From: a bacterium
GTDB taxonomy: Bacteria > Verrucomicrobiota > Kiritimatiellia > CAIKKV01 > CAITUY01
Assembly: GCA_037143175.1 (NCBI GenBank)
Contig: JBAWZF010000001.1
Location: 106,199-170,198, forward strand
Direction: 5' to 3'
DNA: 64,000 bases
The notes beneath the pieces are model-generated. The model was not told the DNA's origin. It ran no database searches and saw only the letters and a list, made by a program, of their open reading frames with translations. The translations under genes were made by a program, and so were the position numbers. Position 1 is the first letter of the stretch. Each line of letters begins with the position of its first letter. This document shows positions 172 through 64,000 of the stretch, piece by piece.

Positions 172-327
172 GGGCCGGAACGTACCATAGGGTGAAAACC
201 AGAGAAAGCGTGAAGTTAGATCTACTTGATTGTGTTTCCGTCTCGATTTTGACACTTTCTTAATCCGTGATTTTTTATATCTGAGTTTCGGAGTACGTGC
301 CAGCACCATCAGAAAAGTGGAATAATT

Positions 328-1446
328 ATGAAGATGCCTTCAAACAGTGAGCCTTTAAACTGCAAAGCGGATACCATGCGATATCGTCCCTTTGGTAAGA
401 CCGGTATGACCGTGTCCGCCCTGTCTTTTGGTTGTATGCGTTTGGGCGAGGATCAGCCTTATAACACTTCGCTCATTGCTCAGGCCATAGATATGGGAGT
501 CAATTATTTCGAGACTACACGGTATTACCTGGGCGGCACCTGTCAGCATCGTACGGCTCCGGGACTTGTTGGTAAAACAGCAGGGGTTATTATTTCCGGT
601 AAGGAAGGCATCGGTCCCGACCAGACGGCTTACCGGTTCCGAAAGGAGATCGAGCGCCAGCTCGATATTCTCGGGCTGACTCACTTCAAGTTTTTCCAGG
701 TTGGCTGGTTTGCCTGGGCCAATATGCCGCATCTGCTTAAACGTGGTGGTGTGCTTGAAGCCATCCGAAGCGCCCAGAATGAAGGTCTGATTCAGCATGT
801 CGGGTTTACCGGCCACGATACGCCGGAGAATTTCACCCGATGCATTGAGACGGGGTTATTTGACAGCCTGACTGTTCCTTACAATTTATTGAATCGTCAG
901 TATGAGCCGACCATCAAGCGGGCAGGGGAACTGGGTGTGGGCGTTGTGGCGATGTGCCCTGTCGCCGGGGGGATGTTATCCTTTGAATCCGACAAGTTGA
1001 AGGAAGCGCTCAAGATGGATCTGCCTACCACCGAGATGGCACTACGATTTGTTCTTTCCAATCCAAACGTGAGCACTGCCTGCTCCGGCATGAATCGAAC
1101 GGAACAGCTCGATCAGAACGTTAAAACGGTTCGGGAGTTTGTGCCCGGCTCGGTTGATTTTGAGGCGATGTGTGAAGGCCTGGATCGGTTGCGCGCCACA
1201 TTGGGCGACCGTTTTTGTACGATGTGCCGTTATTGTATGCCTTGTCCGCAAGGGGTTGACATTCCGCGGCATATGGAGGTTTACAGGAACTGGAAGTGTT
1301 TTGGCCTTTCGGATTGGCCTCAGAGCGGACTCAAGGGGATTCCGGAGGCGCAAAGCGCCGCCCGATGTAACGAGTGCGGCGCGTGCGAGCAGAAATGTCC
1401 TAATAGTCTGGGCATCCGGGCCATGCTGCGCGAACTCCGCATGTGA
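328..1446 (+). CDS. Aldo/keto reductase family oxidoreductase with C-terminal 4Fe-4S ferredoxin-like domain (COG1453-type)
   Basis: 372-aa ORF. The N-terminal AKR signature is RYRPFGKTGMTVSALSFGCMRL. The C-terminal Cys clusters are CTMCRYCMPCP and CNECGACEQKCP. Confidence 0.8.
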   Translation: MKMPSNSEPLNCKADTMRYRPFGKTGMTVSALSFGCMRLGEDQPYNTSLIAQAIDMGVNYFETTRYYLGGTCQHRTAPGLVGKTAGVIISGKEGIGPDQTAYRFRKEIERQLDILGLTHFKFFQVGWFAWANMPHLLKRGGVLEAIRSAQNEGLIQHVGFTGHDTPENFTRCIETGLFDSLTVPYNLLNRQYEPTIKRAGELGVGVVAMCPVAGGMLSFESDKLKEALKMDLPTTEMALRFVLSNPNVSTACSGMNRTEQLDQNVKTVREFVPGSVDFEAMCEGLDRLRATLGDRFCTMCRYCMPCPQGVDIPRHMEVYRNWKCFGLSDWPQSGLKGIPEAQSAARCNECGACEQKCPNSLGIRAMLRELRM

Positions 1447-1580
1447 GAATTCCCGCGTTATCAATATGAATTGAGGCTGTGGAGATTGCTTGAATCAGAG
1501 CAAGGGGTGGTATAGCCTCTGGCCCTATTTTGATAATGGATATTGTTTCTGTGTATGGGCTTTGGATTGGATCGAAAAGG

Positions 1581-49152: not shown

Positions 49153-49650
49153 TTACTTTTTCCTGGAATCCTTGTGATGGCATGCAATGAACTTGGCTCG
49201 CACCTTTTCGACATGCTGCTTCGTATCCGCTCCAAGCTCGCGGGCAATAGCCTGATATTCAGGGGAATCGGCTTTCACGATTTCGTAGAAATGTGAGTCA
49301 ATCAGTGATGTTTCCACGTCCAGAGCAACTGAAAGGGCATGTATGGGAGAGGGGGGCGTTAGACGTGCTGATTCTAATTCCTTTTTAACCATGTCCATTA
49401 AGGGTGCCATCGCAACGGTGTCGAACCGTCCAATATCCTGAAAAATCAGGCCCTTTCCCTGAAGGTGAACCACCGATGTGAGTTGAGCGGCATGTTCTTT
49501 TTCCTCAAGCGCAAGGTCCTGCCAGAATTCAGACATTTCCTGATTTGTCCGCCCGAACTCTGAGTAGAGGTCAGCGATCAGTAACTCACAGGTTATCAGG
49601 TTGTTGATAATCTTGCGTTGGGCTTCGCGAATATGATGCTTGATATCCAT
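49153..49650 (-). CDS. Ferritin-like / rubrerythrin-like diiron-fold protein
   Basis: ExxH-type motifs ALEEKEHAAQL and ELGADTKQHVEK lie in a four-helix-bundle-like sequence. Confidence 0.5.
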   Translation of the reverse strand: MDIKHHIREAQRKIINNLITCELLIADLYSEFGRTNQEMSEFWQDLALEEKEHAAQLTSVVHLQGKGLIFQDIGRFDTVAMAPLMDMVKKELESARLTPPSPIHALSVALDVETSLIDSHFYEIVKADSPEYQAIARELGADTKQHVEKVRAKFIACHHKDSRKK

Positions 49651-49769
49651 AGTGATGCGTTCTTTTTCTAATGTCTTCAAAAAGTACCACAATTCCGTGT
49701 GTCGGTGTCAAATGTCTTTTAACTAAAACATTCGATGCCACATGCTTCTTGGATATTTATGAGGAATCT

Positions 49770-50810
49770 CTACCGTTGGTAGATGGGGAGCTGGCGGTAG
49801 GAGACACTCAGGGAGAGAATGGCCATGCTGGTGCAATAGGTGATATCTTTATCATGGCTGCCCGAGATTGGCCATGAACCGTCTTTTGACTGCGTTTTAA
49901 GAATGGTGTCATAGAGGATCGGGGCAAAGGCTTCCCATTCCGGACCACCCAGCTGGAACATCCCGTTGGCCACATAGTACAGGGCATAGTAGCGGCCAGA
50001 ATCGCCACTGAACGGTGAGTCTTTTTTGAACTGATTAATAATATACTGCCCCGCCTTAAGCGTGACATCTTCGCGGTGCCTTCCGGATAGTTCCAGGCAG
50101 AGGAGGCCGATTCCTGTACGGGCCAGGTTGGCCCCGCCACCGGGCTGGTAGGCGAACCCATTGTCCTGGGTCCGGCAGCGGAGGATGAACTTCACGGCTT
50201 TATCAATCGCCTCCTTGGGCACTGGTGCGCCATTGTTCCGGGTCGAGCGCAAGGCCGCCAAGGCCCAGCCGGCAAGGGAGATATCGCTGTCGGTACTGGT
50301 GGGCTGATAGCGCCAGCCGCCAGCCATGGACTCGGGCTTATTGACATCCTGGGCGTCCAATATGATGCGGATGGCCCTTGGCAGAATCGCATCGATCCTG
50401 GCCTGGCGTTCCGGATCCACCATGCCGGAGACTTCCGAGAGCATCAGGCAGGCGATGTTGTGGCTATACATCTGGCCCTGGCCGCCCATCATCGTGCCTT
50501 TCGTGTCCGGGGTTGTGAGAATGAAATCTATGCCGTGATTGATCACATCGCCATAGGGAGGAAGTCCCGGTGTATGGCCCCGGGCCAGAAATGCCATGAC
50601 GGCCAGAGATGTGATGGCGGGTGACTGCTTTTCTCCGATCGCCCCATCTTTTGTTTGTGATTTGGCGAGGAAGGAGAGCCCTTTATCCACCGCCTCATCA
50701 AACGCGCGTTGATACTTTACATCTTGTATCACAGAGGGTGCAGCGTTGGACGAGGAGGCCAGCAGGAGAGTGAGCGTTGCCAGTCCAAGTAATCGTGTGA
50801 AGATATTCAT
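49770..50810 (-). CDS. Secreted prenyltransferase/squalene-oxidase-repeat (terpenoid cyclase-like alpha/alpha toroid) protein
   Basis: A signal peptide MNIFTRLLGLATLTLLLASSSNA is followed by repeated QxxDGSW/GGW-type motifs (QTKDGAIGEK, QDNGFAYQPGG, SKDGSWPISG). The ATG lies 1 nt after the giant-gene stop. Confidence 0.6.
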   Translation of the reverse strand: MNIFTRLLGLATLTLLLASSSNAAPSVIQDVKYQRAFDEAVDKGLSFLAKSQTKDGAIGEKQSPAITSLAVMAFLARGHTPGLPPYGDVINHGIDFILTTPDTKGTMMGGQGQMYSHNIACLMLSEVSGMVDPERQARIDAILPRAIRIILDAQDVNKPESMAGGWRYQPTSTDSDISLAGWALAALRSTRNNGAPVPKEAIDKAVKFILRCRTQDNGFAYQPGGGANLARTGIGLLCLELSGRHREDVTLKAGQYIINQFKKDSPFSGDSGRYYALYYVANGMFQLGGPEWEAFAPILYDTILKTQSKDGSWPISGSHDKDITYCTSMAILSLSVSYRQLPIYQR

Positions 50811-50811
50811 A

Positions 50812-53800
50812 TTACTCCTCTTCTCCATGACCGGAAACCTCATGGAAATAGCGCTGGATTAAGGGGCGGTATTCTTCGGGGCCTTCATTATTGGCCGCCT
50901 TGAGCACATCGTCTTTCAATTCACCGTGCAGACGGAGCCAATCCTGAAGTTTTAGCCCCATACGTCGTGCAAAGGAGGGGACCCCTTCGGAGGCCTGTGA
51001 GGTATCGTTTTTGCCGTCACTGTTAAGACTGGCCGATTGGAGGGTCGCAGGGCGTGCGTTGGCGCCTGAGGCTTGAGCATCGGCGGCAGCCAGTTGAGCG
51101 GCTTGCGCCAGTTGAGTGGCGGACTGTGCGGCGGCAGATACTTGTGAACTTTCCGCCGCCTGTTTGGCCGACTGATAGGCTTGGGCGATGGCTTCCTGAG
51201 CTGCCAGCGAGGCGGCGGGTTGCTGGCCAGGGGCCGCCCTGGGCGTTTGAGGGGAACCCGCAGCACTGGCAACCTGTTGCAATTGAGCGGAGGCCTGTTG
51301 CAGTGATTGGGCGGCGTTCTGCTGGTTCTGAAGGGTTTGGCTGGCAGCCTGTTGTTGTTCCTGGGCTGAGGCCCTGCGCCCGGAATCATCATCCTTTCCG
51401 GTTGCCTCGATGAATCGTTTGGCGGATTGTTCTGCAGATTGGGTTGCCCGGTTTAATTCCTGGGCCGCCTGTGCTGTTTTGGGGCCAATCTGGGATTGTG
51501 CCAGAACATCGTTCGCTTGTTCATGGAGTACGTTGGCTTCCTGGGTGAGTTCTTTCGCCTCTCCGCCCAATTGTTCCTGCTGTTGTTGCAAGGCATCGTG
51601 TGGCCTGTTCTCGGCGAGGGCACCCATCAGATGTCCCAGTTGTGCCTGCTGTTTTGAGAGGGTGTCGGCCTGCTGGGCAAGACGGGCGAGTTCTGCACGT
51701 TTATCGAGCCGGTCTGAGGCGGTCGCTGTGGTTGCGGAGCGAAGCGTATCGGCGAGTTGATTCATGGCCTGACTGGCTTCCGTCGCGGATGAACTTGCTT
51801 GTGGCAGGTCACCTTTTTGCATTTCAGAGGCGGTCTGACGGGCCGTATCTGCCGCCCGGGTTGCCTGTATCGCCGCGCGGGTGGGAGGGGGCTCCTTATT
51901 CAATTCACGTGCCAGCGCATCGGTTTCATCCGCTAATTTCTGCTGCTGTTCGCCCGCCTGTCGTGAGAGGTTTGCGTTCAGTAAATCTTTTGCGTTCTCT
52001 TTTCCTGTAATCAGGTTGGCGGCTTCGCGGTGAAGTTCCGCTTGCTGCCGGGCCAGTTCTGACAACTTTAGCGCATTGTTTTGTTGAAGGATCCGCGCGG
52101 CAATTTCGCTGGTTTTCAATGCCGCTTCGGCTGCGGCCACGGCATTGGCGGTAGCTGTGGACGTCACCTTCGTGGCTTCTGATTGAGCCTGTTCGGCGGC
52201 GCGTGTGGAGGTTGAAGCGGCGGCCTTCTGGGCTTGCTCGATGGCATTTTGGGCTGCTTGCTGGGCCGTTTGAGCCGCCTGTTGTGCGTTTTGAACCTGT
52301 TGATTCACGGACTGGACGGATTGTTTTGCCTGCTGTGAGGCGTCCCGGGCTGCGGCTTCATTTTGTTTGGCGGCCAGGGCGTTTTGCTGTGCGGTCTGAG
52401 CAGCGCGAGCCATTGCCTGTTCGTCGGGTTTACCCTTGGCTTGAGTTGCCTGCTGAGTAATCTGCTGAGCGGCCTGAGCACTTCGGGCCGCCGTCTGTTG
52501 GGCGGTGGCTGCCTGTTGATCGATTTGTTGGGCTGCCTGCCGGGCTTTTTCTGCTGCCTGCTTTGTGGCCTCTGCTGCTTGTTGGGCAATCTTGTTGGCC
52601 TCCTGAGCTTGCTGCGCGGCTCGTTGTGCGGACGCTTTCGCCGAGACATTTCCGAATTTCGGCGCAATGGCGGCGGTAACTTGGGCATTGGTCTTGATAC
52701 CTGCTGCCTGGGTGGCAAACTCGTTGGCCTTTAGCGCCGCTTCCTGGGCGGCTACGGCGTTGGCGGTGGCGGCGGCGGCCGCCTTGGCCGTTTCTGCCTG
52801 TGCCTGCTCGGCGGCGCGCGTGGAGTTGGCGGTGGCTCCCCGCTGGGCTTGTTCAGTTGCCTGTTGAGCGGCTTGCTGGGCCGCTTGAGCCGCCTGCTGT
52901 GATTTTTGCACCTGTTGTTCTGCGGCTTGGGTGGCTTGCTTTGCCTGCTCTGCAGCCGCACGCGCTTCGACTTCGTTCTGCTTCGCGGTCTGCGCATTTT
53001 TCTGGGCGGTCTGAGCAGCTTGAGTCATGATTTGTTCGTTGGCGGTACCCTTGGATTGCTGGGCCAGTTGTGCCGCTTGTTCAGCTGTTTGTGAGCCTTT
53101 AGCGGCGGCTTCCTGGGCTGTGGCCAATTCTTGTGCGGCCTGTTGGACTGACTGTTTGGCGCGTTCTGCCGCCTCACCGGCGATTTTGGCAGCTTGTTGG
53201 GCCATCCGGCGGGCGTCTTGAGCTTGCTGTTCTGAACGTTGAGTGGCGTTCTTAGTCGCGGCATTTTCAAGGTTGAGTTTACTGGAGTCCTGTTGCTCGG
53301 CTTTCAAGCCTGCGGCACGCGCGGCGAAGTCACTGGCTTTGAGCGCGGCCTCTTCTGCGGCCAAGGCCTTGGTTGCGGCTAAGGCGGCGGCCTTACGGGT
53401 TTCGTCCTGAGCCTGTTCAGTGGCGCGTGGGGACGTGGCAGAAGCAGCCTTCTGCGCTTGATCAATTGCCTCTTTCGCCGCCTGCTGGGCTTCTTCAGCC
53501 GCATTTTGCGCTTTTTGTGCCTGAACTTCGGCGGACTGGTTGATTTGTTTTGCCTGTCGCGCGGCTTGTGAGGCAGTTTGTGCACTCTTTGAGGAAGTTT
53601 GTTTAGCCATCGCCGCCTGTTGTTCGAGTTGTTGGGCTGTCTGCCTGGTATTTTCAGCCGCCTGCCCGGCGTTTACCGTTGCCTGCCGGGCAAGTTTGGC
53701 ATCTTCCTGTGCTTGCTGTGCGGCCTGTTGCGTGGCGGCTTTTGCCAGGGCGTTTTCGAGCGGGGATTTTCCTGAGGCTTGCTGTTCCGCACTCAGGTCT

Positions 53801-56800
53801 GTCGCCCGTTCGGCAATTTTTGCAGCTTTCAAGGCTGCTTCTTGTGCAGTCACGGCATGGGCCGTGGCTGCTGCTGCCGTCCTGGCAGTTGCGGCTTGTG
53901 CCTGTTCGGCGGCGAACGGGGTGGGGGCGGCGGCACCTTTCTGGGCTTGTTCAGTTGCCTGTTGAGCGGCTTGCTGGGTATCCTCGGTCGCTTTTTGAGC
54001 TTTCAGAACCTCTTGCTCGGCTGCTTTCAATAACCCTTGTGCCTGCTTGCTGGCCTTGCGTGCCGCGTCCTCGTTTTGTTGTGCGGACAGAGCTTTCTGC
54101 CGTGCCGCCTGAGTGGCATTGATCAGTTCCTGTTCGTTGGCTTTCCCCATGGCATGTTGCGCTTGTTGGGCCGCTTGTTCCGCTGCCTGTGAACTCTTTA
54201 CTGCAGTTTGCTTTGCCAGCGAAAGCTGTTGTTCGATTTGTTGAACTGCCTGTCTGGTTTTGTCCGCCGCCTGTTCGGCGCGTTGGGTCGACTGCTGGGC
54301 CAGCTTACGGGCATCCTGAGCCTGCTGTGCCGCCTGTTGTGTATCATTTTTTGCCGGGGTAACCGCAGAGTTGGGGGTGGAGGAAGCTTCCTGATTGGCT
54401 CTTATCTCCGCCGCCCGTGCGGCGAGTCCACTGGCTTTCAACGCCGCATCTGATGCCGTCTTGGCATGGACGGTGGCTGAGTCGGCTGACTTCGCAGTCT
54501 CGGCGAGCGCCTCTTCTGCGGCGTGTGTGGAAGTGGAGTAAGTTGATTTTTGAACCAGCTCAGCGGCTTGATTGGCCTCATGTTGGGCGGCTTGAGCCGC
54601 CTGTTGTGCTCGTTTCGCCTGGTCTGCCGCTGCTTGTGCGGTTTGTCTGATCTCTTGTGCGGCCTCGCGAGTCGCGGCTTTGTTTTGGTCAATTTGTTGA
54701 GCGGTCTGTTGGGCCCTCTCCGCAGCCTGTCCGGCGTTCAGTGCGGCGAGTTTGGCAAGGCTGCTGGCTTCCTGTGCTTGCCGCGCTGCTTGTTGTGTTG
54801 CGGCTTTTGCAGAGGGGTCTTCAGGTTTGGGGTTGGCGGAGGCTTGCTGGTCGGCATTCAGTTCAGCCGCGCGGGCGGCGAGTTCGCGCGTGGGGTTCGG
54901 TTTGATAGAATCCTGAGACTGCTGCTGTGCAGCCTGTGGCACGGCGGTCTGTTGAGCGTTGGCAGCCTGGCGCAGTATATCAGCGGCCTGTTTCAGGGCG
55001 TCGGATACGTTGGCCTGGGTTTCGACGGCATGTGCGGTTTTTCCGGATTCCAGATCGCGGGCGGCATTTCGCATGGCTTCGCTTTGGGCCGCTGCCAGCG
55101 GTTCGTTGCGGGCAAGATCTGCCAACTGATTCTGGCGAGTGGTGAGCTCGCGCCATTGGCTGTCCTGTTTCTGAAGTCGCTCCGTTTCTTCTTTTGTTAA
55201 AGCCGCGAGCTCTTTCTGCCGCGTCGCGAGGTCATTGGCCTGAGTGGCGGCTTGAGTCGTACGGTTACTGATAGCCGCGGCAATCTGGGCTGCGGAGCCG
55301 GGGGTTTCGCGGGTGACTTTGGCGAGTTCATTGGCCACCTGATTCTGGGCACGCTTCCACTCATTTGAGGCGGCAGCAGCCTGGGCGATGGCGGTCGTGT
55401 TACTGGAAGGGATGGGCGGGGTGTTGTCCATGTCTTGCCGGGCTTGCGCAAGGGCGGCCTGTTTATTCGCCAACTGCTCGAGTTTCACGGCGCGGTGAAC
55501 TGCGGCCCTGGCAATTTCATGATTCTCAATAGCCTTCTCCACGGTCTCCAGCGAGGTGGTGATTTCCGCAGTGATATTGCTGTTGATGGCGGTGCGCTCG
55601 GCGGGGGTGTCAAGAAGACGGATTTGCCCCGCCATATTTTCCGCCTTGCTGATATGGCCTTCCGCAAGTGTGGTCAGGTTACTGGCCATGGATTCAAAGA
55701 AGCCCTTGTCAATATCAGCGGCGATTTTCCTCAGCCCGTTGTCGGTGGAGGCCAGCGTATCCTGAAGGGTGTCAATTTGGCGGGTGGTGCTGTCGGGGAG
55801 GGTGGGCTGGCCCAACGGCTTTTCCAGGGCCCGTGCCTGTTCGCGGGCAAGGTTGAGTTGATCCCGGACCTTCTTGAGTCCCTGTTGGACGCGCTGATCC
55901 TGACTGGTCAGAACTTGTTCTGTCCAGGAGGCCGCCTGATTATCAATGAGGATGGTGCAGGGCTCCGAGTCGGTGCTCTGGGGACCTTGGAAAGGCCTCG
56001 GGAGGTTATCAAACGCCCGGATGCGGAAGGAGACGCGTGTCGCGTTGCTGAAACAGATGTCCTCAAGCGCGATAAGTGTTTCTCCATTGAGGGTTCTTGG
56101 AATTGTTTCTGGCGAGGAATCCGGCAGGGGCAGGGACCGGATCAGGTCGTTGGTCATTCCCGAAACAGTGCAAACAAGGGCCACGGCGGTTAACCCGTGA
56201 TCGTCTTCAGCCCGGTAGGTGATAGGGAGGCGGGCCTCGCGGTTCAGGTGCAGCTCACGGGTGAGGGGGCTGGTTAGGGTGACCACGGGTGGATTGTCCG
56301 GGATGCTCTGTATAGGGTGCTCGAATGGAGAGTTGGTCAGGTTGATTTCGTCAGTCAGTCGGATGGTCCAACTACCGTTCAGTTTTCCTGGTAACGTGAG
56401 ACTGAAATCATAAAAATTGATTTTTCCTTCCGTGCGGAGAAGTCCTGTGAAGGTGTTAGTCAGGGTGGGGGTCATCACCAAAAGTATGGCTTGGCGCGCG
56501 GGTTTGTTGACTTGAGCCGACAGGGATACGGCGGTGCCGGCAAGCGCCCGGATGGTTCCGGAGCCGTCACGCTCCTGCTTGATGCTCAGGCGTGAGTATT
56601 CGGGGTAGCTGTATTGGAGGGCGAGGTGTTCAATGACGGGGGGGATGGCCACACGGACGGTGAAATACCGGGAGAGTGCATCGCCGGCCTGAACGCGATA
56701 CCGGAAGTCGTTCAGGATGCGGGGAACGGTGACGGCAAAGCGTCGTCCCGGCTGATTGGTTGAGGCCGGCAGTGGAGCCATTTCCATGACCGTTACACGG

Positions 56801-57531
56801 CCTTGACGATCCACCTGGCGAAGCCGTGCGAAGGAGACGACCGGGTTGGCTGTGCGAAGCGAAACGTTCAAGGAAGATCCTGCGGCAACAAGGGTATCGC
56901 CGGGTTCAACCACGAGGTCGACCGCCTGAACGTTGGGGAGATTTAGGAAGGGGGCTGTGGCACGTGCCAGCAGGAAACAAGTTTGCCGGGGCCATACCAG
57001 GTAGATCGTCGACAGCGAAATAAATACGATTGCGGCGGCGGCGACGAACGGAATCGCGCCGCGAAATGAGATTTCATGGCGGGGTTGGATCGTGATGGCT
57101 TCGCGGACCGCTTCTTCGGTCAAGGCCGCGATGAGGGTTTCTGAGCCGCGAATGGAGGGGAGATCCTTACTGCCCAGGAGTTGGACGGCGGAACTGATGC
57201 GCTCCTGTAATTCCGGATGGTGTGTTTCGATGAGCCGTGCAACGCCGGCCAGCGTGAACGAGTGGGTCAGGGGCCGGATCAGGTACCAGACTGTCGCTCC
57301 CACCCAGGCAGCATAGGCCAGCACGGTCATGACCCAGCGGGGCCACTCGACCAGCAGGGTGACGCTGGCATCCAGCAGCATGATCAGCAGGAACGCTCCG
57401 AGTCCGGCGGCACAGGAAGCGCAAAGTCCGCGGAGAATCATCAGGTGCCGTGTCCGCCGGATCAGCCCGCTGAGTGCGGTTACAATCTGGGCTGGCAGCG
57501 GGGCCGGTTCGTTTATCGGGGTCTTGTTCAT
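50812..57531 (-). CDS. Giant (2239 aa) membrane-anchored Ala/Gln/Glu/Lys-rich coiled-coil protein with internal tandem repeats, part of the BatA/BatB cassette
   Basis: Two or three N-terminal TM helices are followed by a beta-rich region of about 450 aa. About 1500 aa of heptad-like low-complexity sequence follow, containing at least 5 tandem units of roughly 170-200 aa (...QQAQEASSLAKLAALNAGQAAERAQQTAQQIDQ... recurring). The C-terminus is acidic. The start MNKTPINE overlaps the upstream stop by 1 nt. Confidence 0.8.
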   Translation of the reverse strand: MNKTPINEPAPLPAQIVTALSGLIRRTRHLMILRGLCASCAAGLGAFLLIMLLDASVTLLVEWPRWVMTVLAYAAWVGATVWYLIRPLTHSFTLAGVARLIETHHPELQERISSAVQLLGSKDLPSIRGSETLIAALTEEAVREAITIQPRHEISFRGAIPFVAAAAIVFISLSTIYLVWPRQTCFLLARATAPFLNLPNVQAVDLVVEPGDTLVAAGSSLNVSLRTANPVVSFARLRQVDRQGRVTVMEMAPLPASTNQPGRRFAVTVPRILNDFRYRVQAGDALSRYFTVRVAIPPVIEHLALQYSYPEYSRLSIKQERDGSGTIRALAGTAVSLSAQVNKPARQAILLVMTPTLTNTFTGLLRTEGKINFYDFSLTLPGKLNGSWTIRLTDEINLTNSPFEHPIQSIPDNPPVVTLTSPLTRELHLNREARLPITYRAEDDHGLTAVALVCTVSGMTNDLIRSLPLPDSSPETIPRTLNGETLIALEDICFSNATRVSFRIRAFDNLPRPFQGPQSTDSEPCTILIDNQAASWTEQVLTSQDQRVQQGLKKVRDQLNLAREQARALEKPLGQPTLPDSTTRQIDTLQDTLASTDNGLRKIAADIDKGFFESMASNLTTLAEGHISKAENMAGQIRLLDTPAERTAINSNITAEITTSLETVEKAIENHEIARAAVHRAVKLEQLANKQAALAQARQDMDNTPPIPSSNTTAIAQAAAASNEWKRAQNQVANELAKVTRETPGSAAQIAAAISNRTTQAATQANDLATRQKELAALTKEETERLQKQDSQWRELTTRQNQLADLARNEPLAAAQSEAMRNAARDLESGKTAHAVETQANVSDALKQAADILRQAANAQQTAVPQAAQQQSQDSIKPNPTRELAARAAELNADQQASANPKPEDPSAKAATQQAARQAQEASSLAKLAALNAGQAAERAQQTAQQIDQNKAATREAAQEIRQTAQAAADQAKRAQQAAQAAQHEANQAAELVQKSTYSTSTHAAEEALAETAKSADSATVHAKTASDAALKASGLAARAAEIRANQEASSTPNSAVTPAKNDTQQAAQQAQDARKLAQQSTQRAEQAADKTRQAVQQIEQQLSLAKQTAVKSSQAAEQAAQQAQHAMGKANEQELINATQAARQKALSAQQNEDAARKASKQAQGLLKAAEQEVLKAQKATEDTQQAAQQATEQAQKGAAAPTPFAAEQAQAATARTAAAATAHAVTAQEAALKAAKIAERATDLSAEQQASGKSPLENALAKAATQQAAQQAQEDAKLARQATVNAGQAAENTRQTAQQLEQQAAMAKQTSSKSAQTASQAARQAKQINQSAEVQAQKAQNAAEEAQQAAKEAIDQAQKAASATSPRATEQAQDETRKAAALAATKALAAEEAALKASDFAARAAGLKAEQQDSSKLNLENAATKNATQRSEQQAQDARRMAQQAAKIAGEAAERAKQSVQQAAQELATAQEAAAKGSQTAEQAAQLAQQSKGTANEQIMTQAAQTAQKNAQTAKQNEVEARAAAEQAKQATQAAEQQVQKSQQAAQAAQQAAQQATEQAQRGATANSTRAAEQAQAETAKAAAAATANAVAAQEAALKANEFATQAAGIKTNAQVTAAIAPKFGNVSAKASAQRAAQQAQEANKIAQQAAEATKQAAEKARQAAQQIDQQAATAQQTAARSAQAAQQITQQATQAKGKPDEQAMARAAQTAQQNALAAKQNEAAARDASQQAKQSVQSVNQQVQNAQQAAQTAQQAAQNAIEQAQKAAASTSTRAAEQAQSEATKVTSTATANAVAAAEAALKTSEIAARILQQNNALKLSELARQQAELHREAANLITGKENAKDLLNANLSRQAGEQQQKLADETDALARELNKEPPPTRAAIQATRAADTARQTASEMQKGDLPQASSSATEASQAMNQLADTLRSATTATASDRLDKRAELARLAQQADTLSKQQAQLGHLMGALAENRPHDALQQQQEQLGGEAKELTQEANVLHEQANDVLAQSQIGPKTAQAAQELNRATQSAEQSAKRFIEATGKDDDSGRRASAQEQQQAASQTLQNQQNAAQSLQQASAQLQQVASAAGSPQTPRAAPGQQPAASLAAQEAIAQAYQSAKQAAESSQVSAAAQSATQLAQAAQLAAADAQASGANARPATLQSASLNSDGKNDTSQASEGVPSFARRMGLKLQDWLRLHGELKDDVLKAANNEGPEEYRPLIQRYFHEVSGHGEEE
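51700..54950 (-). repeat. Intragenic tandem repeat array (about 5 units of about 0.5-0.6 kb, degenerate) encoding the coiled-coil repeats of the giant protein
   Basis: Recurrent protein blocks (AATQQAA[RQ]QAQE[AD]..., AAEEALAETAKSA.../AAEQAQAETAKAA..., ...AEEAALKAS[DG][FL]AARAAG) appear at about 170-200-aa intervals. The boundaries are approximate. Confidence 0.55.
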
Positions 57532-60500
57532 CAGGGCAGCCTCACTTTCTTGCGCAGCATCCACTCGGCGGTCAGGAGCGTCAGGATCAGAAGAAACCAG
57601 GGCCAGGAATTCCATATATCAATCTGGCGCCGTTCTGTGCTCGTGATTTTTGCGGGCCCGAGCCGTTTGGAAATGGAGTCGAGCGCAGATGTATCCAGGA
57701 CCTTGCCGGCGGAAAGTCCGGCCAGACTGGTCAGCACTCCGCGGTCCGCCGAAAGCTCAACTTTTTCAGCATCCGTTACCGCCGTGACGGAAAATTCGGT
57801 GAACGGTGACGGGGCGGTATCCTTTTTGCTGATTCCAGACGTTTCCAGTTCAATGCGGTAATTCCCTTCGGGTAACGCACTCAGTTCGGTGAAGTAGATC
57901 CCCGGAGAGCTCTCGCGATAACTCAATTGGAAATGGGAGACTTTCCGGTCGCCGCGCCACAGCGTTGCGCCAGGGGAAGCTTTTATGATGGGCATGAAGT
58001 CCGGCGTGGCCAGCCGTGCGGTAACGCGAATCGGGCTTCCGGCAGGGTAACGCGAGCGGGAGGTTCCAATCCGGAGCGTATTGGAACCGGTGGCAATTCT
58101 ATCGGCCGTGGCCCAGCCGAGAATTTGACCCCATAGTTTGTGGTGAAATTGATCGCCCTTCTTGTAACGCATACGCCAGGTCTGGTCGAACCCGAACATC
58201 AGAACCGAGCCGAAGCCGGCTTGATGGCTGATCACGAGCGGATTCTCCTGTTCAAGTCGTTGTTGCTTGAGAAGACTTTCGGCGTCAGGAATACGGCTAG
58301 GCAGCCCATCGGATTCCGGCTGTGGTGGTGTCGCATAGGCGAGCACGGTGGCCCCGTTCTTGGCCGTGATGGCGCCGTTCCTCCAGCGGAGTCCGGGCAC
58401 TTCGCCCCAGGCTTTCAGGTTCCCGGCCGGGTCATCATCAAGCCTCATAAACATGGCATCCCGGCCCGCCGCAGTCAGGCTGAGCCGAAATTCCATTTCC
58501 GGTGCCGCAAGAAGGGGACGCTGGGTGGGTTTGAAAGTGACGGGAAGGATTTCTGTCAGGGGAGTACCGGTATAGGCTTGCGGCATATGCCGACTTCCTG
58601 CGATGACAATGAGTGAACCGCCGCGGCTGAGGACATAGTCCCGCAGGATGTCCATGTTGGCCTTGCCCAGTTCATCAGGGGCCACATCTCCCAGGATAAT
58701 GACATCGAATTTCAGCCACTCCGCCGTATTCGTCGGAAGGAGGGTGGCTTCGGGTTCCGCCTGGTCTGCCGCGACAGTGGCAGCGCGCGGGGGGCGGTTG
58801 GTGATTCCCGCAACCTGGTCAGGATGAAGCAACAGGTACTGGAGCCGCACATTCTTGTCCCGTTGCATGAAGAGATTTTTGAGATAACGGAATTCCCAGC
58901 GCGGTTGGCCGTCGATCAGCAGGACATTGATGGCATCGCTCTCTACCCGCACGGGAATATTGAATACGTTATTGCTGGAATCGACTTCGGAAGGGAAATT
59001 TCCAACCCTGACGGAATAGGCGTGCAGGCCATTTGTTTTTGGGGCATCCGAGAGCAGGAGCTGCTGTCGGAAGGCAGCGGCTGAAGGTGTGACGGTGTTA
59101 GAGGCAACCGGGGTGGCGCCATCGAAGAGGGTGACGGTCACATTGGAGCCAGACAGGCCATCCAGTTTCAAATCGAGCGCAAAGGAGATCCGGTCGTTTG
59201 TGCTGACCGATTCGGGCGCGGTGACAGAGGCGATGGCGGCATCGGTCGGGGGGAACTGATTTCCTCCGAGTACAACAGGGAAGATAGGAATTCGCTGTAC
59301 GCCGAATTTGCGGGCGATGGATTCCACGGAACCGGCGGTGTTGTGGCGGCCGTCCGTAAGAAGAAGCACCCCGGCGGTCTGTTCCGGTACCATGGTGGAT
59401 GAGATCCTGGCCAAGGCTCCAGCGATATCGGTTCCCTGAACCTGCCGGGGCGGAGGCGAGGTGATGACCAGGGTGCCAGCGGCCTCAAGAAATGTTTTGG
59501 TTTTTACTTCGGTGGGTGATGACCCGAAGGTCAAGAGTTGAACGCCATATTCATGCTCGAGACGTTCGAGCAGGGACTGTGTGCCGGTGCGGGTTGTCAG
59601 GAGTTTATACGCCACCTCACTCCGGCGGAACGTGGCCATCTGGTCGATGGCCTTGCGATCCGACTCGGACAGGGAACGGTAGAAGCGTTCATCCACGGCA
59701 TCGCCGATGAGCCGCAGTCGTGCTTCGCCCTCGGCGAGGAAGGTCGCCGTTTTTTGCACGGTTTCGCGGATGGAGTCATAGGCGGCACCGCTATTGGTGA
59801 CGGTCTGCCAGTCGTCAACCCGCTTGATGGCAAGCTCCAGGGGTTGACTGGCTTCGGAGGTAATTCGGGATCTGAAGCGCTTCAGATCGGTGATTTGGGA
59901 GGTGGCATCCTTCTGAAGGAAGGGCGCCGCCGCGGTTTCGTCGAGGACTTTTACGGTTTCTTCGAGACTGTCGCGAACCTGGGTCAGCGCTTTCCGTTGC
60001 GCTTTAACATGCTGTTTCAATTGGCGGGCGCGGAGATCCTGGCCGGTTCCGGAAAGAGCATTAAGCCAGTCGAGTTGCGCCAGAAGGTTCTGACTGGCTT
60101 CGTTCAAGCGGTCGGCAAGTGTGTCGACTTGGAAGAGGCGTTGAGCCATGGGGAGCTGCAGGCTCTCGGCCAGGCGTAGTTTTTCGGCCACGGTCAGGTT
60201 GTTATCCGGGATCTGCATGGAGGCGCTGACATCCAGCAAGACCACGATGTGACGCTGGATTTTATGGGCGACGTTGTAGACGAAAACGGGCTGACAGAGC
60301 ATCAGGACAACCGCCAGTAGGGTGGATATCCTGAGGAGGGTCAGGGCTCTGCCAGCCCGGGGGGATACGATATTCCGTTCAAGACGTGCCAGTGCCATGA
60401 CCGTTTCGATCAGGAGGGCGGCGAGAAGCAAGAGTGGCCACAGACGCCATTTAGTTGAAAATACGACGGCCTGTTGGGCCAGTCCGGCGGCGGCGAGGAG

Positions 60501-60653
60501 CGTCAAAAATCCAAGGGCTGATCTGCCGGTAAACGCCAGCCATTTCCACGGGTTCACCACCACGCGGCTCCAAACCTGGGCGCGTATCCACAAACCCAGC
60601 AGAAGACAGGTTAGTAGGCTGTAGACTAATAGACTGTTCGAGAAATCAATCAT
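57531..60653 (-). CDS. BatB-like vWA protein: N-terminal multi-TM region, split von Willebrand A domain with coiled-coil insert, class-I glutamine-amidotransferase-like (DUF4159/ThuA-like) domain, C-terminal TM
   Basis: The vWA DxSxS motif is VVLLDVSASM and the later vWA half is VLLLTDGRHN. The amidotransferase-like segments are VLLIDGQPRWEFRYLKN, DVIILGDV and GGSLIVIAGS. The C-terminal TM is WPWFLLILTLLTAEW. The start MIDFSN overlaps the BatA-like stop (ATGA). Confidence 0.7.
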   Translation of the reverse strand: MIDFSNSLLVYSLLTCLLLGLWIRAQVWSRVVVNPWKWLAFTGRSALGFLTLLAAAGLAQQAVVFSTKWRLWPLLLLAALLIETVMALARLERNIVSPRAGRALTLLRISTLLAVVLMLCQPVFVYNVAHKIQRHIVVLLDVSASMQIPDNNLTVAEKLRLAESLQLPMAQRLFQVDTLADRLNEASQNLLAQLDWLNALSGTGQDLRARQLKQHVKAQRKALTQVRDSLEETVKVLDETAAAPFLQKDATSQITDLKRFRSRITSEASQPLELAIKRVDDWQTVTNSGAAYDSIRETVQKTATFLAEGEARLRLIGDAVDERFYRSLSESDRKAIDQMATFRRSEVAYKLLTTRTGTQSLLERLEHEYGVQLLTFGSSPTEVKTKTFLEAAGTLVITSPPPRQVQGTDIAGALARISSTMVPEQTAGVLLLTDGRHNTAGSVESIARKFGVQRIPIFPVVLGGNQFPPTDAAIASVTAPESVSTNDRISFALDLKLDGLSGSNVTVTLFDGATPVASNTVTPSAAAFRQQLLLSDAPKTNGLHAYSVRVGNFPSEVDSSNNVFNIPVRVESDAINVLLIDGQPRWEFRYLKNLFMQRDKNVRLQYLLLHPDQVAGITNRPPRAATVAADQAEPEATLLPTNTAEWLKFDVIILGDVAPDELGKANMDILRDYVLSRGGSLIVIAGSRHMPQAYTGTPLTEILPVTFKPTQRPLLAAPEMEFRLSLTAAGRDAMFMRLDDDPAGNLKAWGEVPGLRWRNGAITAKNGATVLAYATPPQPESDGLPSRIPDAESLLKQQRLEQENPLVISHQAGFGSVLMFGFDQTWRMRYKKGDQFHHKLWGQILGWATADRIATGSNTLRIGTSRSRYPAGSPIRVTARLATPDFMPIIKASPGATLWRGDRKVSHFQLSYRESSPGIYFTELSALPEGNYRIELETSGISKKDTAPSPFTEFSVTAVTDAEKVELSADRGVLTSLAGLSAGKVLDTSALDSISKRLGPAKITSTERRQIDIWNSWPWFLLILTLLTAEWMLRKKVRLP

Positions 60654-63154
60654 TTCGACATCAACTCCGTTAGTCGTGTTTTCGTAGCCTGTACGCTTTC
60701 TGCCGGGGATTTCAGGGTTACCGGTTTGGCCTGATGCAGATGCCGGTGTAGCGTGATCCAACGGGTGAGGGTAACTTCGGCAAGGAGTGTAAACAAGGCA
60801 CAGATAACCAGGATCTTCCATAATTCCTGGCCGGGTATATTCCCTGTGAAGGCGGTGAGAAGTTCATCCAGAGATTTCGGCAGGAACAAGTCGACGTGGC
60901 TTCGGATGGCCGCGATATCGGCATCGGATAGAAAGGTGAGGGTGCTTTCTTCAGGCTGGTTCTTCACCGCAAAGAGCACCTCGGAGTTACCATTCGAGGC
61001 GACCCCGGCAGCGGCGGCAAGGGCTGCGGGGAATTGGACACGGTAAATTCCGGGTTGGCGGGTCTCGCCGCAACGGACGATGAACCGGTTTTTTTCCTGT
61101 TTGATCCGGATGGGAAGTTGCTCGCCAGCGGGGAGGGTGACCGTGGCTGTTTCCCAATCCGCCGTATTATTGACGTCCGCAGGAACTACGCCAGCCAACG
61201 TCCATTCTGTACCCGGCATGATATTGCAGTCCTGCAGGGATGAGGTCGCCAGGAAGTACACCATCTCATGGAGCAGCGGGACAAAGCATTTGAGGGAATA
61301 CAGGTTGCTGTCGCGGCGATCAAAGGCCATGGGCGTCATCAATACGTTCCCTTTTCCGAGTGGACGTTCCAGCAGCCAGGGGGCGCCGGATTCAAGCCGG
61401 CCGCCGACCCGGCTCTCGTTGGAGGCGGGATCGAGTCCCATTTCCCAATAGCTGGCTATAAGGCCAAGCCGGGCGTCCGATTGATCCGGTTGCGCCACCA
61501 GTCGGACTGCGGGATGGGTAAAGGACTTGAGTTCCAGTTTCAGCGGATCGGGTGGGTAGATGCGTTGCTCGAGCCGGGCGGGAAGAAGGGTCTCCCCGGC
61601 GGTGGTCTGCCAGGCATTGTAGAACGCCGGTTCGGCGCGGGCACCGGGAGTCACCAGCAGGCCGCCCCCTGCCTTGACGAAAACGGCCACACGTTCGGCC
61701 TCTGCCGCAGGCAGACGGGAGACGTCCGCCAGAATTATGACGCGATATGGGGTGAGATCTTTGATGGTGCCGATATCAGCTGCCTCAACAATGGTGGGCT
61801 TGACCAGATAGGGCAATTCCGAGGTGTCGGCACTCTTATTGGCGGAGGCGTCACGTGGGGTCAACGCGACCCGGATGAGGCTTGCCGTTTTACGGAAGAA
61901 GAAACGTTCCGTAGAGGCGCCCTCAACCAGCAGGATCGGTAGACGATCCAGGATGTGGACAATCTGTTCGAGGGAATTATCGGCGAGGAGATCATCTTCG
62001 GCCACGAGTCGGGCTTGAATGACATGGTAGCCGGGTGTCTCGAACATGTGGTTGAAAAGGAATACCTCGGCCGCCTGCGGCACCAGATCCTTCATGATCG
62101 GAGTTCGCTCGATTTGTTTTCCATCCACCAGCAACTCGAGCGCGGACGGGTGGACCGGGACGTTACCTGAGTTGGCGACGCTGACTTCGATTTTTACCGG
62201 GCGATCTGTACCGATGATGGAGCGTGACAGGCGGATTCCAGTGACCAGCGTATTCCTGAACAGTTCAGGGTGGGGAAGGCGGCGGCAGATGATACGCGGC
62301 GGAGTCGGCAGTTGCTTGAAGCCGGAGGCCAGAAAGTTCCAGCGGGCTTCTGTCTGTCCGTCCCAACCTGCGGCCTGGCCATCTGTGAATATCACCACGG
62401 TCTTAGACACATTAGGACCATCGGCCAGGATCGAGGTCGCCAGGTTCAGGGCTTCCAGTGTGGCCATGATGCTGCCGGTGGGTTTGCAGGCCTTGCTGTC
62501 GAGGGCGCGCAGCAACTCGCGCCGATCAGAGGTGGGGCGACTGACAAGGGCCTGGGGGACGGGGCCCGCCAGGATAATCGCCATGGCGTCACCGGGGCGT
62601 GACTTTTCAATCAGGTCACGGGCTTCCTGGACCGCCTGGGTGAATTGGCTTGGACCCTCGGAGGCCATGGTCATTGAGAGAGAGGCGTCGAGAACGATCA
62701 CCGTGTCGCCACCTCCCGCCGCCGTCATCCAGCGGCGTGCCTGGATCCGCTGTTCCAGGAGGGTCGCCAGTACGGCAATGACCAGCATGGCGGCCGCGAT
62801 TTTCAACAGCCGGCGGCGCAACTTTTCATTGGGCCAGAGGACCGTGGCAATGCCGGCGCAGAGTACGGCGAGAAAGATGCCGGGCAGGATGAGGATCCAG
62901 GGGATGGCGGACATACTGGGAAGAAAGGGGCGGGCCATGGCCAATGCCAGGGTGGCCAGCGCCAGGCAGCGCAGGCACAGGAGGATACCGTCCTCGATCT
63001 TTACGCGGCGGCTACGGGCGGTCATGGAGGCCCTCAGGAACTGCATGGCACCCCATTCGATGGGACGGGGTTTGCTGCGGTTCAGCAAATGAATCAGGAT
63101 CGGGATGGCGATCGCCGCAAGGCCAATGAGGATAAGTGGATTTAAAAATGTCAT
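60650..63154 (-). CDS. BatA-like vWA protein with N-terminal double-transmembrane domain (834 aa)
   Basis: The N-terminus [40 protein letters not shown] is the characteristic Bat-type N-terminal double-TM signature. The vWA motif is [10 protein letters not shown] with a MIDAS-like TDGQ. The C-terminal TM is [11 protein letters not shown]. The track extension to 63340 just reads through the heptamer repeats. Confidence 0.75.
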
Positions 63155-63166
63155 GGTGACTCCGGC

Positions 63167-63380
63167 ACGGGCAGTGGCCAGTAGGCAGTGGGCAGTGAGC
63201 AGAGAGCAGTGGGCAGTGGGCAGTAGGCAGTGGGCAGTGGGCAGTGAGCAGTGAGCAGTGGCCAGTGGGCAGTGAGCAGTAGGCAGAGAGCAGAGAGTAA
63301 AAGAGGGGTATTCGAGCTCTGTCGACTGCCCACTGCCCACTGCCCACTGGCCACTGTTAACTGTTCACTGCTCACTGGCC
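63167..63380. repeat. Heptanucleotide tandem-repeat inverted array: about 18 direct copies of GGGCAGT-like units, a 28-bp spacer, then about 8 inverted copies (ACTGCCC-like)
   Basis: Positions 63167-63297 read cagtggc cagtagg cagtggg cagtgag cagagag cagtggg and so on. The spacer taaaagaggggtattcgagctctgtcga follows. Positions 63326-63380 read ctgccca ctgccca ctgccca ctggcca ctgttaa ctgttca ctgctca ctggcc. The element fills the whole DUF58-BatA intergenic region. Confidence 0.9.
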
Positions 63381-63383
63381 TCT

Positions 63384-64000
63384 TCATCTTCTCACCAGGC
63401 TCTTCCGATGGGCCAGGTAACTGGCCAAGGCCAGATCAAAATCCTGGCGGGTTGAAAAGGGGACGTAGTCTATCCGCATTTCCCCGCAGCCTTTTTCAAT
63501 GGCATCAAGAAAGGTGCGGACTTCACGGAGATAAGCTGAACGCAGGGATTCCGGATCGATCTCCAGATGGTTTCCGTTCTGTTCTAGATCCTGGAACTGG
63601 CTCCAATGTTTGAACGGGAAGGTCAACTCCTCATCCGCCATCACGTGCATGAGAATAATTTCATGCTTGCGGAAGCGGAAGTGGTGCAATGCCTTGAGAA
63701 TCTCCTCCGGCTTGTCGAACAGATCGGAGATGATGATCAGGAGGCCGCGCCGGTGAATCCGTTCGGCAACTTCATGGAAAACCGGGGCGAGGGCCGATTC
63801 TTCGCCAGGGGTTGTGTTGAACATCGCCTCCAACAGGACGTTCATATGATTGGTTCGCGTCCGGGAGGGAATGTAGTTGCGGATGGCGTTGTCATAGGTC
63901 ACGAGCCCGACAGCGTCCTGCTGGTTCAGGAGGAGACGGGTCAGACTCGCGGCGAGGAAGCGGGCGTACTCAAATTTACTGAGCGGTTGTCCCTGATGTT
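63384..64000 (-). CDS. DUF58 family protein (vWA-like, MoxR-operon type), 5'-truncated by window end
   Basis: The C-terminal ~205 aa read ...[67 protein letters not shown]...[10 protein letters not shown], which is typical of DUF58. The frame is open to position 64000. Confidence 0.75.

Follow-up and report, generated by a model that had tools for sequence, protein, structure and literature searches.

The window analyzed here, a 64,000-nucleotide (nt) stretch of a Kiritimatiellia genome (contig JBAWZF010000001.1), carries on its minus strand a giant gene whose 2,239-amino-acid (aa) product contains five diverged tandem repeats. The protein begins with three hydrophobic helices, followed by three immunoglobulin (Ig)-like beta-sandwiches, an amphipathic helical region of ~1,600 aa built of Ala, Gln, Glu, and Lys (the stalk), and a tail of 55 aa. 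The reading that we favor, with about even confidence, is that this is a real envelope protein, probably a periplasmic stalk or tether of modular and evolvable length, encoded in an operon typical of Planctomycetes–Verrucomicrobia–Chlamydiae (PVC) bacteria.

The giant gene and its five repeats

A single open reading frame (ORF) spans 50812..57615 on the minus strand, and its true start is codon 29. One base is common to this ATG (57531..57529) and the stop codon TGA of the gene before it, and a purine-rich AGUGAGG stretch precedes the ATG. Moreover, the equivalent start position is used in homologues of the giant protein, and an independent public gene call on an identical contig gives the same 2,239-aa product. 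Because the ATG overlap, the homologue starts, and the public gene call agree, the gene bounds 50812..57531, proposed in an earlier sequence-only reading of this DNA, are exact. Residue numbers in the long ORF minus 28 give the numbers from the real start, which are used for all domain bounds.

Five tandem repeats of 152, 203, 163, 203, and 205 aa occupy 52090..54867. A self dot-plot of the protein scored with BLOSUM62 reveals strong diagonals at offsets of 152-163, 203-205, 355-368, 408, 518, 569-571, and 723-774 aa, the top 40-aa diagonal scoring 134 versus 71 ± 4.6 (maximum 84) in 100 composition-preserving shuffles of the same region. The motif TQQAAxQAQE occurs at aa 940, 1092, 1295, 1458, and 1663 (long-ORF numbering), with spacings of 152, 203, 163, and 205 aa, and the other motif blocks pointed out in the sequence-only reading also recur in register (EAALK four times and AEQAQ three times). 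That reading had described a giant protein of about five degenerate tandem repeats, and the periodic diagonals on which this description hinged are present, with units of ~150-205 aa. Pairwise, the units are 44-55% identical in amino acid sequence (44-52% when compared with the first unit), and both short units lack 40-51 aa in mid-unit. The composition was likewise described correctly as rich in Ala and Gln with few Pro, Gly, and aromatic residues: Ala makes up 32.5% of the repeat region, Gln 19.1%, Glu 7.2%, Lys 6.7%, Pro 1.2%, Gly 1.6%, and Phe, Tyr, and Trp together 0.5%. For the stalk, the values are 28% Ala and 17% Gln.

The nucleotide identity among the units is 61-66%, and the longest exact run that they share is 38 nt. 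As a result of this divergence, Tandem Repeats Finder found no repeat in the DNA, and the repeats are visible at the protein level only. A BLASTP comparison of the protein with itself returned the identity diagonal only, and the repeats were scored instead by a custom diagonal script with BLOSUM62. The same figures bear on the concern, raised in the sequence-only reading, that the region is mis-assembled or its repeats collapsed, and on the rival view that a collapse or chimera hides a different gene. Many public homologues do stop at contig ends inside the helical region. However, copies this diverged, with so short a shared run, exclude collapse by the assembler, the frame is uninterrupted for 6.7 kb, and four public contigs of 20 kb to 1 Mb (the one shown being 234.7 kb), perhaps not from independent samples, carry the identical 2,239-aa protein. 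We give an artefactual origin next to no credence.

The AT skew is extreme, from -0.41 to -0.55, across positions 52000-56000 of the window. Long plus-strand ORFs opposite the gene (e.g., 54550-55200 and 55435-56193) are not genes; they only reflect the Ala/Gln/Lys/Glu-rich sequence encoded on the minus strand.

Conserved ends of the protein

A Kyte-Doolittle scan, taking the mean hydropathy over 19-residue windows, found exactly three hydrophobic segments in the giant protein, all near the N terminus. An AlphaFold2 model of the N-terminal module (N-module), built from an 11-sequence alignment, places helices at residues 14-57, 62-89, and 156-192. The model has a mean predicted local distance difference test (pLDDT) score of 82, mostly 88-95 over the Ig-like region. 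In it, two membrane helices are followed by a small helical loop domain, then by a long hydrophobic third helix and three beta-sandwiches (~205-530). The loop between helices 2 and 3, a conserved helical stretch of ~70 aa, bears the family motif E-x-[RH]-H-P-E-L-Q-E-R, and the alignment shows invariant columns here. A Foldseek search of the Protein Data Bank (PDB) with the Ig-like region retrieved generic tandem ectodomains of Ig or fibronectin type III type only, with E-values down to 3.5e-11.

At the other end, the tail (PSFARRMGLKLQDWLRLHGELKDDVLKAANNEGPEEYRPLIQRYFHEVSGHGEEE) carries the motif LG[IL]xxxDWxRLPGxLRxxxLQA...P[EA]EYRxL[IV]xRYF, which recurs with some substitutions at the C terminus of complete homologues across the sampled phyla. 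The closest versions are found in Planctomycetota and Kiritimatiellia loci.

Predicted fold of the stalk

The hydropathy of the repeat region has a period of 3.56 residues, with a power of 31.7 versus 7.5 ± 1.1 in shuffles, a highly significant sign of amphipathic helix. A canonical coiled coil would have heptads (period 3.5) with bulky hydrophobic residues at positions a and d. Leu, Ile, Val, Met, Phe, Trp, and Tyr together account for 8.9% of this region, and the apolar face is mostly Ala. When repeats 4 and 5 were modeled together by AlphaFold2, with an alignment of four rows taken from repeat pairs of the window protein itself, the pLDDT was 73, and three helices were predicted per repeat, of 83, 70, and 46 residues in repeat 4 and of 71, 69, and 38 residues in repeat 5. 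Short turns are predicted at GTANEQ/GKPDEQ and ATANSTR/ASTSTR, and a low-confidence linker joins the two repeats. In both short repeats, the missing residues include the first predicted turn.

Since two equally long predicted helices flank a tight turn, the model suggests that a long module is an antiparallel hairpin of two ~70-residue helices with a third helix of ~40 residues packed against it. The reach per module would then be roughly 10 nm, compared with ~30 nm for one continuous helix. The predicted helix-turn-helix pattern fits folded-back modules better than one continuous rod, and a classical dimeric coiled coil for the repeat region is unproven.

Such helices could also serve a different purpose, namely a self-associating scaffold that lies along the membrane as a filament or lattice, either periplasmic or close to the membrane, in the manner of intermediate filaments or tektins, in which repeats would add lateral surface and not reach. 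The long amphipathic helices with their Ala-rich face would suit this role, as would a total helix length greatly above that of a normal periplasm, and the best structural neighbours of the repeat model, none of them significant, are filament-forming helical bundles of axonemal doublets and the coiled-coil domain of Cg1735. Yet no structural match reached significance, and a strictly conserved tail with a single anchor at the opposite end fits a two-ended tether better than a polymer. We regard the scaffold as rather improbable.

Insertion of the repeats and change in copy number

Comparison with shorter family members locates the origin of the extra length. In the 1,207-aa member L019, BLASTP matched aa 1-730 and 1853-2264 of the window protein (long-ORF numbering throughout this comparison), two stretches that lie nearly end to end in L019. 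For the distal stalk, aa 1853-2264 correspond to L019 744-1196, and aa 1972-2260 correspond to residues 877-1176 of a further member, L053. Because members of ~1,200 aa align to both ends, the ~1,120 aa in mid-stalk are a lineage-specific insertion, most of which consists of the five repeats.

A profile of the repeat was used to count copies in relatives. The sequence-only reading had predicted that the repeat number would vary, and it does: five copies in the window protein, four in L026 (2,247 aa), three in P0015 (1,985 aa), and one in P0014 (1,387 aa), three proteins whose N-modules are 69-74% identical to that of the window protein. L026 is the closest locus, a Kiritimatiellia metagenome-assembled genome (MAG) with an N-module identity of 69%. 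Two copies are present in each of L001, L003, and L005 (1,733-1,763 aa) and one in each of L006, L024, and L004 (1,403-1,825 aa).

Some copies are orthologous by position, repeat 4 of L026 being 73% identical to repeat 3 of P0015 and repeat 3 of L026 being 68% identical to repeat 2 of P0015. All five window copies are nearest to the terminal-type copy of P0014, P0015, and L026 (54-61% identity), which suggests an old, independent expansion in the lineage of the window. In L001 (12674-13861), the two copies are 98.8% identical in nucleotide sequence over 603 nt, and in L003 (12674-13951) they are 98.7% identical over 691 nt, whereas the copies of the two genomes are only 78% identical to each other at the protein level. 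With ~99% nucleotide identity within each genome and 78% amino acid identity between them, these pairs appear to be recent independent duplications or else products of gene conversion. The true copy number in the short-read assemblies of L001 and L003, and in the single-copy L024, may exceed the assembled number. Other long members have expanded by unrelated units of 101, 158, and ~580-700 aa, and the ~1,200-aa forms of Verrucomicrobiales have no internal repeats.

We also considered whether partner proteins scale in length with the stalk and rejected this idea; their lengths are nearly constant, and the rank correlations reflect differences between clades.

From these comparisons one could argue that the helical region is a loose spacer in which only the conserved ends matter, its low-complexity, recombination-prone sequence undergoing near-neutral unequal crossing-over with no tuning of length. 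Stalk lengths in the family do vary, from ~550 to 2,200 aa, and the partner proteins show no corresponding variation; different lineages use unrelated repeat units, and the stalk sequence is far less conserved than the ends. However, the copies in the window have diverged to 44-55% identity and yet have kept the frame, the amphipathic period of the helix, and the turn motifs. This persistence, together with the orthologous copies in L026 and P0015, points to maintenance rather than rapid churn. An untuned spacer is, in our judgment, somewhat unlikely.

Family distribution and relationship to DUF4175

In a search of 1.84 billion proteins with a profile of the N-module, 19,507 cluster representatives scored E ≤ 1e-3, 6,075 of them even E ≤ 1e-30. 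The N-module, with E-x-[RH]-H-P-E-L-Q-E-R as the scan pattern, also gave 203 family loci in genome assemblies labeled Kiritimatiellia, Verrucomicrobiota, Planctomycetota, and Lentisphaerae, together with a few MAGs labeled Anaerolineales or "uncultured bacterium"; the proteins at these loci are 1,184-2,247 aa long. The 78 complete representatives selected with a looser tail motif have a median length of 1,405 aa and a 95th percentile of 1,990 aa; only the longest of them, at 2,876 aa, exceeds the window protein. We define the PVC clade of this family by the N-module motif and the tail ...DWxRLPGxLR...EYRxLIxRYF, and the window protein carries both. A word-indexed protein database gave 10-12 relatives, all of ≤988 aa, and those with a source name were labeled partial.

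The full-length protein matched nothing in Pfam (E ≤ 0.01) or NCBIfam, and NCBIfam scans of the N-module and of the distal stalk were also empty. When the N-terminal 545 residues were scanned by themselves, Pfam DUF4175 (PF13779) scored 23.0 bits (E = 2.4e-05) over positions 206-326 of the 825 in its profile. The match falls on the Ig-like region and stays below the gathering threshold of 27.3 bits. Among 11 close relatives, five match the same model, the best with E = 9.9e-13, and several relatives are named "DUF4175 family protein" by NCBI. Given the sub-threshold score here and the matches of the five relatives, the relationship to DUF4175 is real but marginal.

Three other assignments were tried and rejected. 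The sequence-only reading had likened the protein to SMC-like, tether, or ruler proteins, and the SMC-like label does not hold: Pfam and NCBIfam reveal no ATPase head, AAA, or hinge domain, and the N terminus is a membrane anchor followed by beta-sandwiches. For a phage tape-measure protein, the model TMP_2 matched the tail only (E = 0.006, 16.7 bits versus a threshold of 30.2 bits), and the neighbours are envelope genes. Finally, when the giant protein was compared with the PADLOC models of known or candidate defense systems, no match emerged, nor did any for MoxR, the toroid protein, or the second of the VWA proteins.

Operon context

The giant gene is part of a gene order, MoxR, DUF58, BatA/VWA, VWA, giant gene, and exported toroid, that is kept across Kiritimatiellia, Verrucomicrobiota, Planctomycetota, and Lentisphaerae and held in nearly all of 80 related loci examined. 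In the window, the operon genes all lie on the same strand and are tightly coupled (Table 1). We took adjacent same-strand genes for DUF58, the BatA N-terminal domain, and VWA as the mark of a Bat-like operon, and all of these are present here. The reading frame of the DUF58 gene runs on to the window edge, and the expected MoxR ATPase upstream of it falls outside. In L026, the order begins with MoxR (AAA_3, 6.4e-63), followed by DUF58 and BatA/VWA. The upstream 1,040-aa partner has a C-terminal transmembrane helix, and its likely start forms an ATGA overlap with the BatA stop. On the downstream side, the ATG of the toroid gene lies one base after the TAA of the giant gene, with the Shine-Dalgarno motif GAGGAG at the junction. 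The N terminus of the toroid protein, MNIFTRLLGLATLTLLLASSSNA/AP, is a typical Sec signal peptide, and its gene is adjacent in nearly all related loci whose DNA reaches past the giant gene. The GNAT acetyltransferase and PIG-L deacetylase encoded further downstream are outside the conserved gene set. In Borrelia, a BatA-type protein resides in the inner membrane with its VWA domain facing the periplasm (PMC5700661).

Table 1 Features of the giant gene and its operon in the window
Feature	Coordinates	Strand	Basis and remarks
Giant gene, 2,239 aa	50812..57531	-	ORF and translation; stop codon included
Membrane anchor, helices aa 35-53, 67-85, 162-180 (real start)	56992..57429	-	Kyte-Doolittle, AlphaFold2, alignment
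Three tandem Ig-like beta-sandwiches, ~aa 205-295, 298-410, 415-530	55942..56919	-	AlphaFold2, Foldseek
Proximal helical stalk before repeats	54868..55929	-	First part common to short members; last ~190 aa part of the lineage-specific insertion
Repeat 1, short form, 152 aa	54412..54867	-	Motif, unit alignment, repeat profile
Repeat 2, long form, 203 aa	53803..54411	-	Motif, unit alignment, repeat profile
Repeat 3, short form, 163 aa	53314..53802	-	Motif, unit alignment, repeat profile
Repeat 4, long form, 203 aa	52705..53313	-	Unit alignment, profile; three predicted helices
Repeat 5, long form, 205 aa	52090..52704	-	Unit alignment, profile; three predicted helices
Distal helical stalk after repeats	50980..52089	-	Common to short family members (BLASTP)
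Conserved C-terminal tail, 55 aa	50815..50979	-	Motif recurs in complete homologues
Downstream partner, 346-aa alpha/alpha-toroid (prenyltransferase/squalene-cyclase-like)	49770..50810	-	Pfam Prenyltrans 5.7e-08, gene call
Upstream partner, 1,040-aa membrane protein	57531..60653	-	Weak VWA_2 and DUF7408 (Pfam), gene call, synteny
BatA N-terminal double-transmembrane domain and VWA	60650..63154	-	Pfam BatA 2.8e-19, VWA_2 1.8e-14, TIGR02226 1.7e-23
DUF58 gene, cut by window end	63384..64000	-	Pfam DUF58 1.3e-16, profile positions 84-211 only

The intergenic region that separates the DUF58 stop codon from the likely start of BatA (63155-63383) contains two heptamer arrays in inverted orientation, (GGGCAGT) repeated ~17 times at 63169-63286 and its reverse complement (ACTGCCC) repeated ~5-7 times at 63325-63377. 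A 21-nt probe of three heptamer units gave 12 matches in this intergenic region and none elsewhere in the window, with 0 expected. The ORF listed for BatA begins at GTG 63340; its first 62 codons are translated heptamer array, the BatA domain starts from codon 63, and this 63rd codon is the likely true start. A "PglX" match on residues 18-60 of the listed ORF was dismissed as an artefact of the heptamer repeat. The minus-strand RNA of the heptamer region folds into a very long hairpin (minimum free energy -122 kcal/mol, z-score -8.65). This feature might serve regulation or RNA processing within the operon, or it might be an element prone to slippage. L026, whose intergenic gap is only 52 nt, lacks it. 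Scans of the window for tRNA genes and Rfam families found nothing.

Directly downstream of the operon, an ORF of 175-179 aa on the minus strand (49153-49692) is not conserved at this position in relatives; it has a sub-threshold match to the encapsulin ferritin-like cargo EncB (E = 8.7e-4, 19 bits versus a 90-bit cut-off). In L026, a divergent gene upstream of MoxR (200-1582, minus strand) encodes an FHA-domain sigma-54 activator that may regulate the operon; the matching region of the present contig falls beyond the window.

Predicted topology

The N terminus of the giant protein is positively charged, with five Lys and Arg residues versus one Asp or Glu. Because of this charge (positive-inside rule) and the three membrane passes, the N terminus is probably cytoplasmic and the C terminus external, and the Ig-like domains, stalk, and tail are predicted to be periplasmic.

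If the third helix did not span the membrane, or if the topology were inverted, the stalk and tail would be cytoplasmic, and the protein might be a cytoplasmic tether or cytoskeletal element. MoxR ATPases are cytoplasmic, and the topology here is a prediction. AdvA, an essential division protein of Acinetobacter with a DUF4175 annotation, has two transmembrane helices and a role in cell division (PMC7481262). On the other hand, the DUF4175 match of the window protein is sub-threshold and lies on the beta-sandwich region, which is not the part described in AdvA. Moreover, the three hydrophobic segments are clear and the N terminus strongly positive, the family consensus also shows a hydrophobic third segment, tandem Ig-like domains are typically extracytoplasmic, and the tightly linked downstream partner carries a signal peptide. 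We consider a cytoplasmic stalk quite improbable.

A proposed stalk or tether of modular length

The mechanism that we propose for the stalk or tether is as follows. The protein would be anchored in the inner membrane alongside the MoxR/VWA (Bat-like) complex, with its N terminus in the cytoplasm, and the stalk would hold the conserved tail away from the inner-membrane base of this complex. The cotranscribed toroid protein would be exported to the same periplasmic compartment. Whole modules could be gained or lost by unequal recombination, which would tune the reach. Since conserved modules flank the variable stalk at both ends, it is plausible that the copy number sets the physical length.

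Several points weigh against this proposal. The topology is placed solely by hydropathy and the positive-inside rule. The model of the repeats has moderate confidence, with four rows in its alignment; structural searches with it gave no significant neighbour (best E = 0.057), and PDB sequence searches with the repeat profile and the whole protein were empty. The fold-back geometry is derived from helix lengths and turn positions, and the short repeats, which have no obvious helix breaker at the deletion junction, may fold unlike the long ones. An ordinary periplasm measures ~25-30 nm, and the stalk, even when folded, would be longer. In short-read MAGs, the copy numbers may be too low where copies are ~99% identical. 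In Leptospira, deletion of Bat-type operons caused no oxidative-stress or growth phenotype (PMC3557215). Literature searches that covered DUF4175 and the Bat operons of PVC bacteria turned up no study of this family.

A more specific version of the proposal, which we hold to be unlikely, is a PVC-specific modular setter of periplasmic distance, with modules matched to an unusually wide and variable periplasm, that would place the tail toward the peptidoglycan or outer membrane and perhaps also position the exported toroid protein at a set distance. An enlarged periplasm has been documented for Planctomycetes (PMC5394234). If this version were true, stalk length would predict envelope geometry from sequence alone. 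The strains with one, three, four, and five modules are a natural experiment on whether a protein ruler sets an envelope dimension, in bacteria noted for their unusual envelopes. If stalk length is neutral, the same strains display ordinary repeat expansion in a helical spacer. The family itself is abundant, its sequence clusters in PVC bacteria numbering in the thousands, and it is encoded in one of the most conserved envelope operons of these bacteria. It now has a defined architecture of an anchor, three Ig-like domains, a variable stalk, and a conserved tail, in which changes of length are confined to the stalk and come in whole modules.

Comparison with known systems

The operon resembles Bat/MoxR-DUF58-VWA operons in that genes for DUF58, the BatA domain, and VWA lie directly upstream of the giant gene, and MoxR heads the operon in the closest relative. 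Classical Bat operons carry TPR/SH3 proteins (BatC, BatE) and BatD and are not known to include a giant helical-stalk protein or a toroid protein. DUF4175 corresponds to TIGR02302, an alphaproteobacterial family of "low-complexity" membrane proteins. As in that family, the transmembrane helices of the giant protein lie at the N terminus and precede a long Gln-rich region of low complexity. The array of ~200-aa repeats, however, is a trait of one Kiritimatiellia-like subclade.

Resemblances to TolA and to helical-bundle rods such as EzrA and spectrin are architectural only. TolA is anchored in the inner membrane, spans the periplasm with a long Ala/Lys/Glu-rich helical domain, and meets its distal partners through a small conserved C-terminal domain. 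The giant protein likewise combines an anchor, a long helical domain, and a small conserved distal domain, with no sequence or profile similarity to TolA in a Pfam scan; it differs in its three transmembrane helices, three Ig-like domains, a stalk that is several times longer, and repeated modules. Like spectrin repeats and EzrA, the modules are arranged in tandem after a membrane anchor, and each is predicted to contain three helices with tight turns. However, the spectrin repeat is ~106 aa long, whereas the modules here are about twice as long (150-205 aa) and have no significant fold match, and EzrA is cytoplasmic. With rulers and spacers such as Lpp, phage tape-measure proteins, and FliK/YscP there is no homology; what the giant protein may have in common with them is that helical length sets a distance, which shifts as residues are gained or lost.

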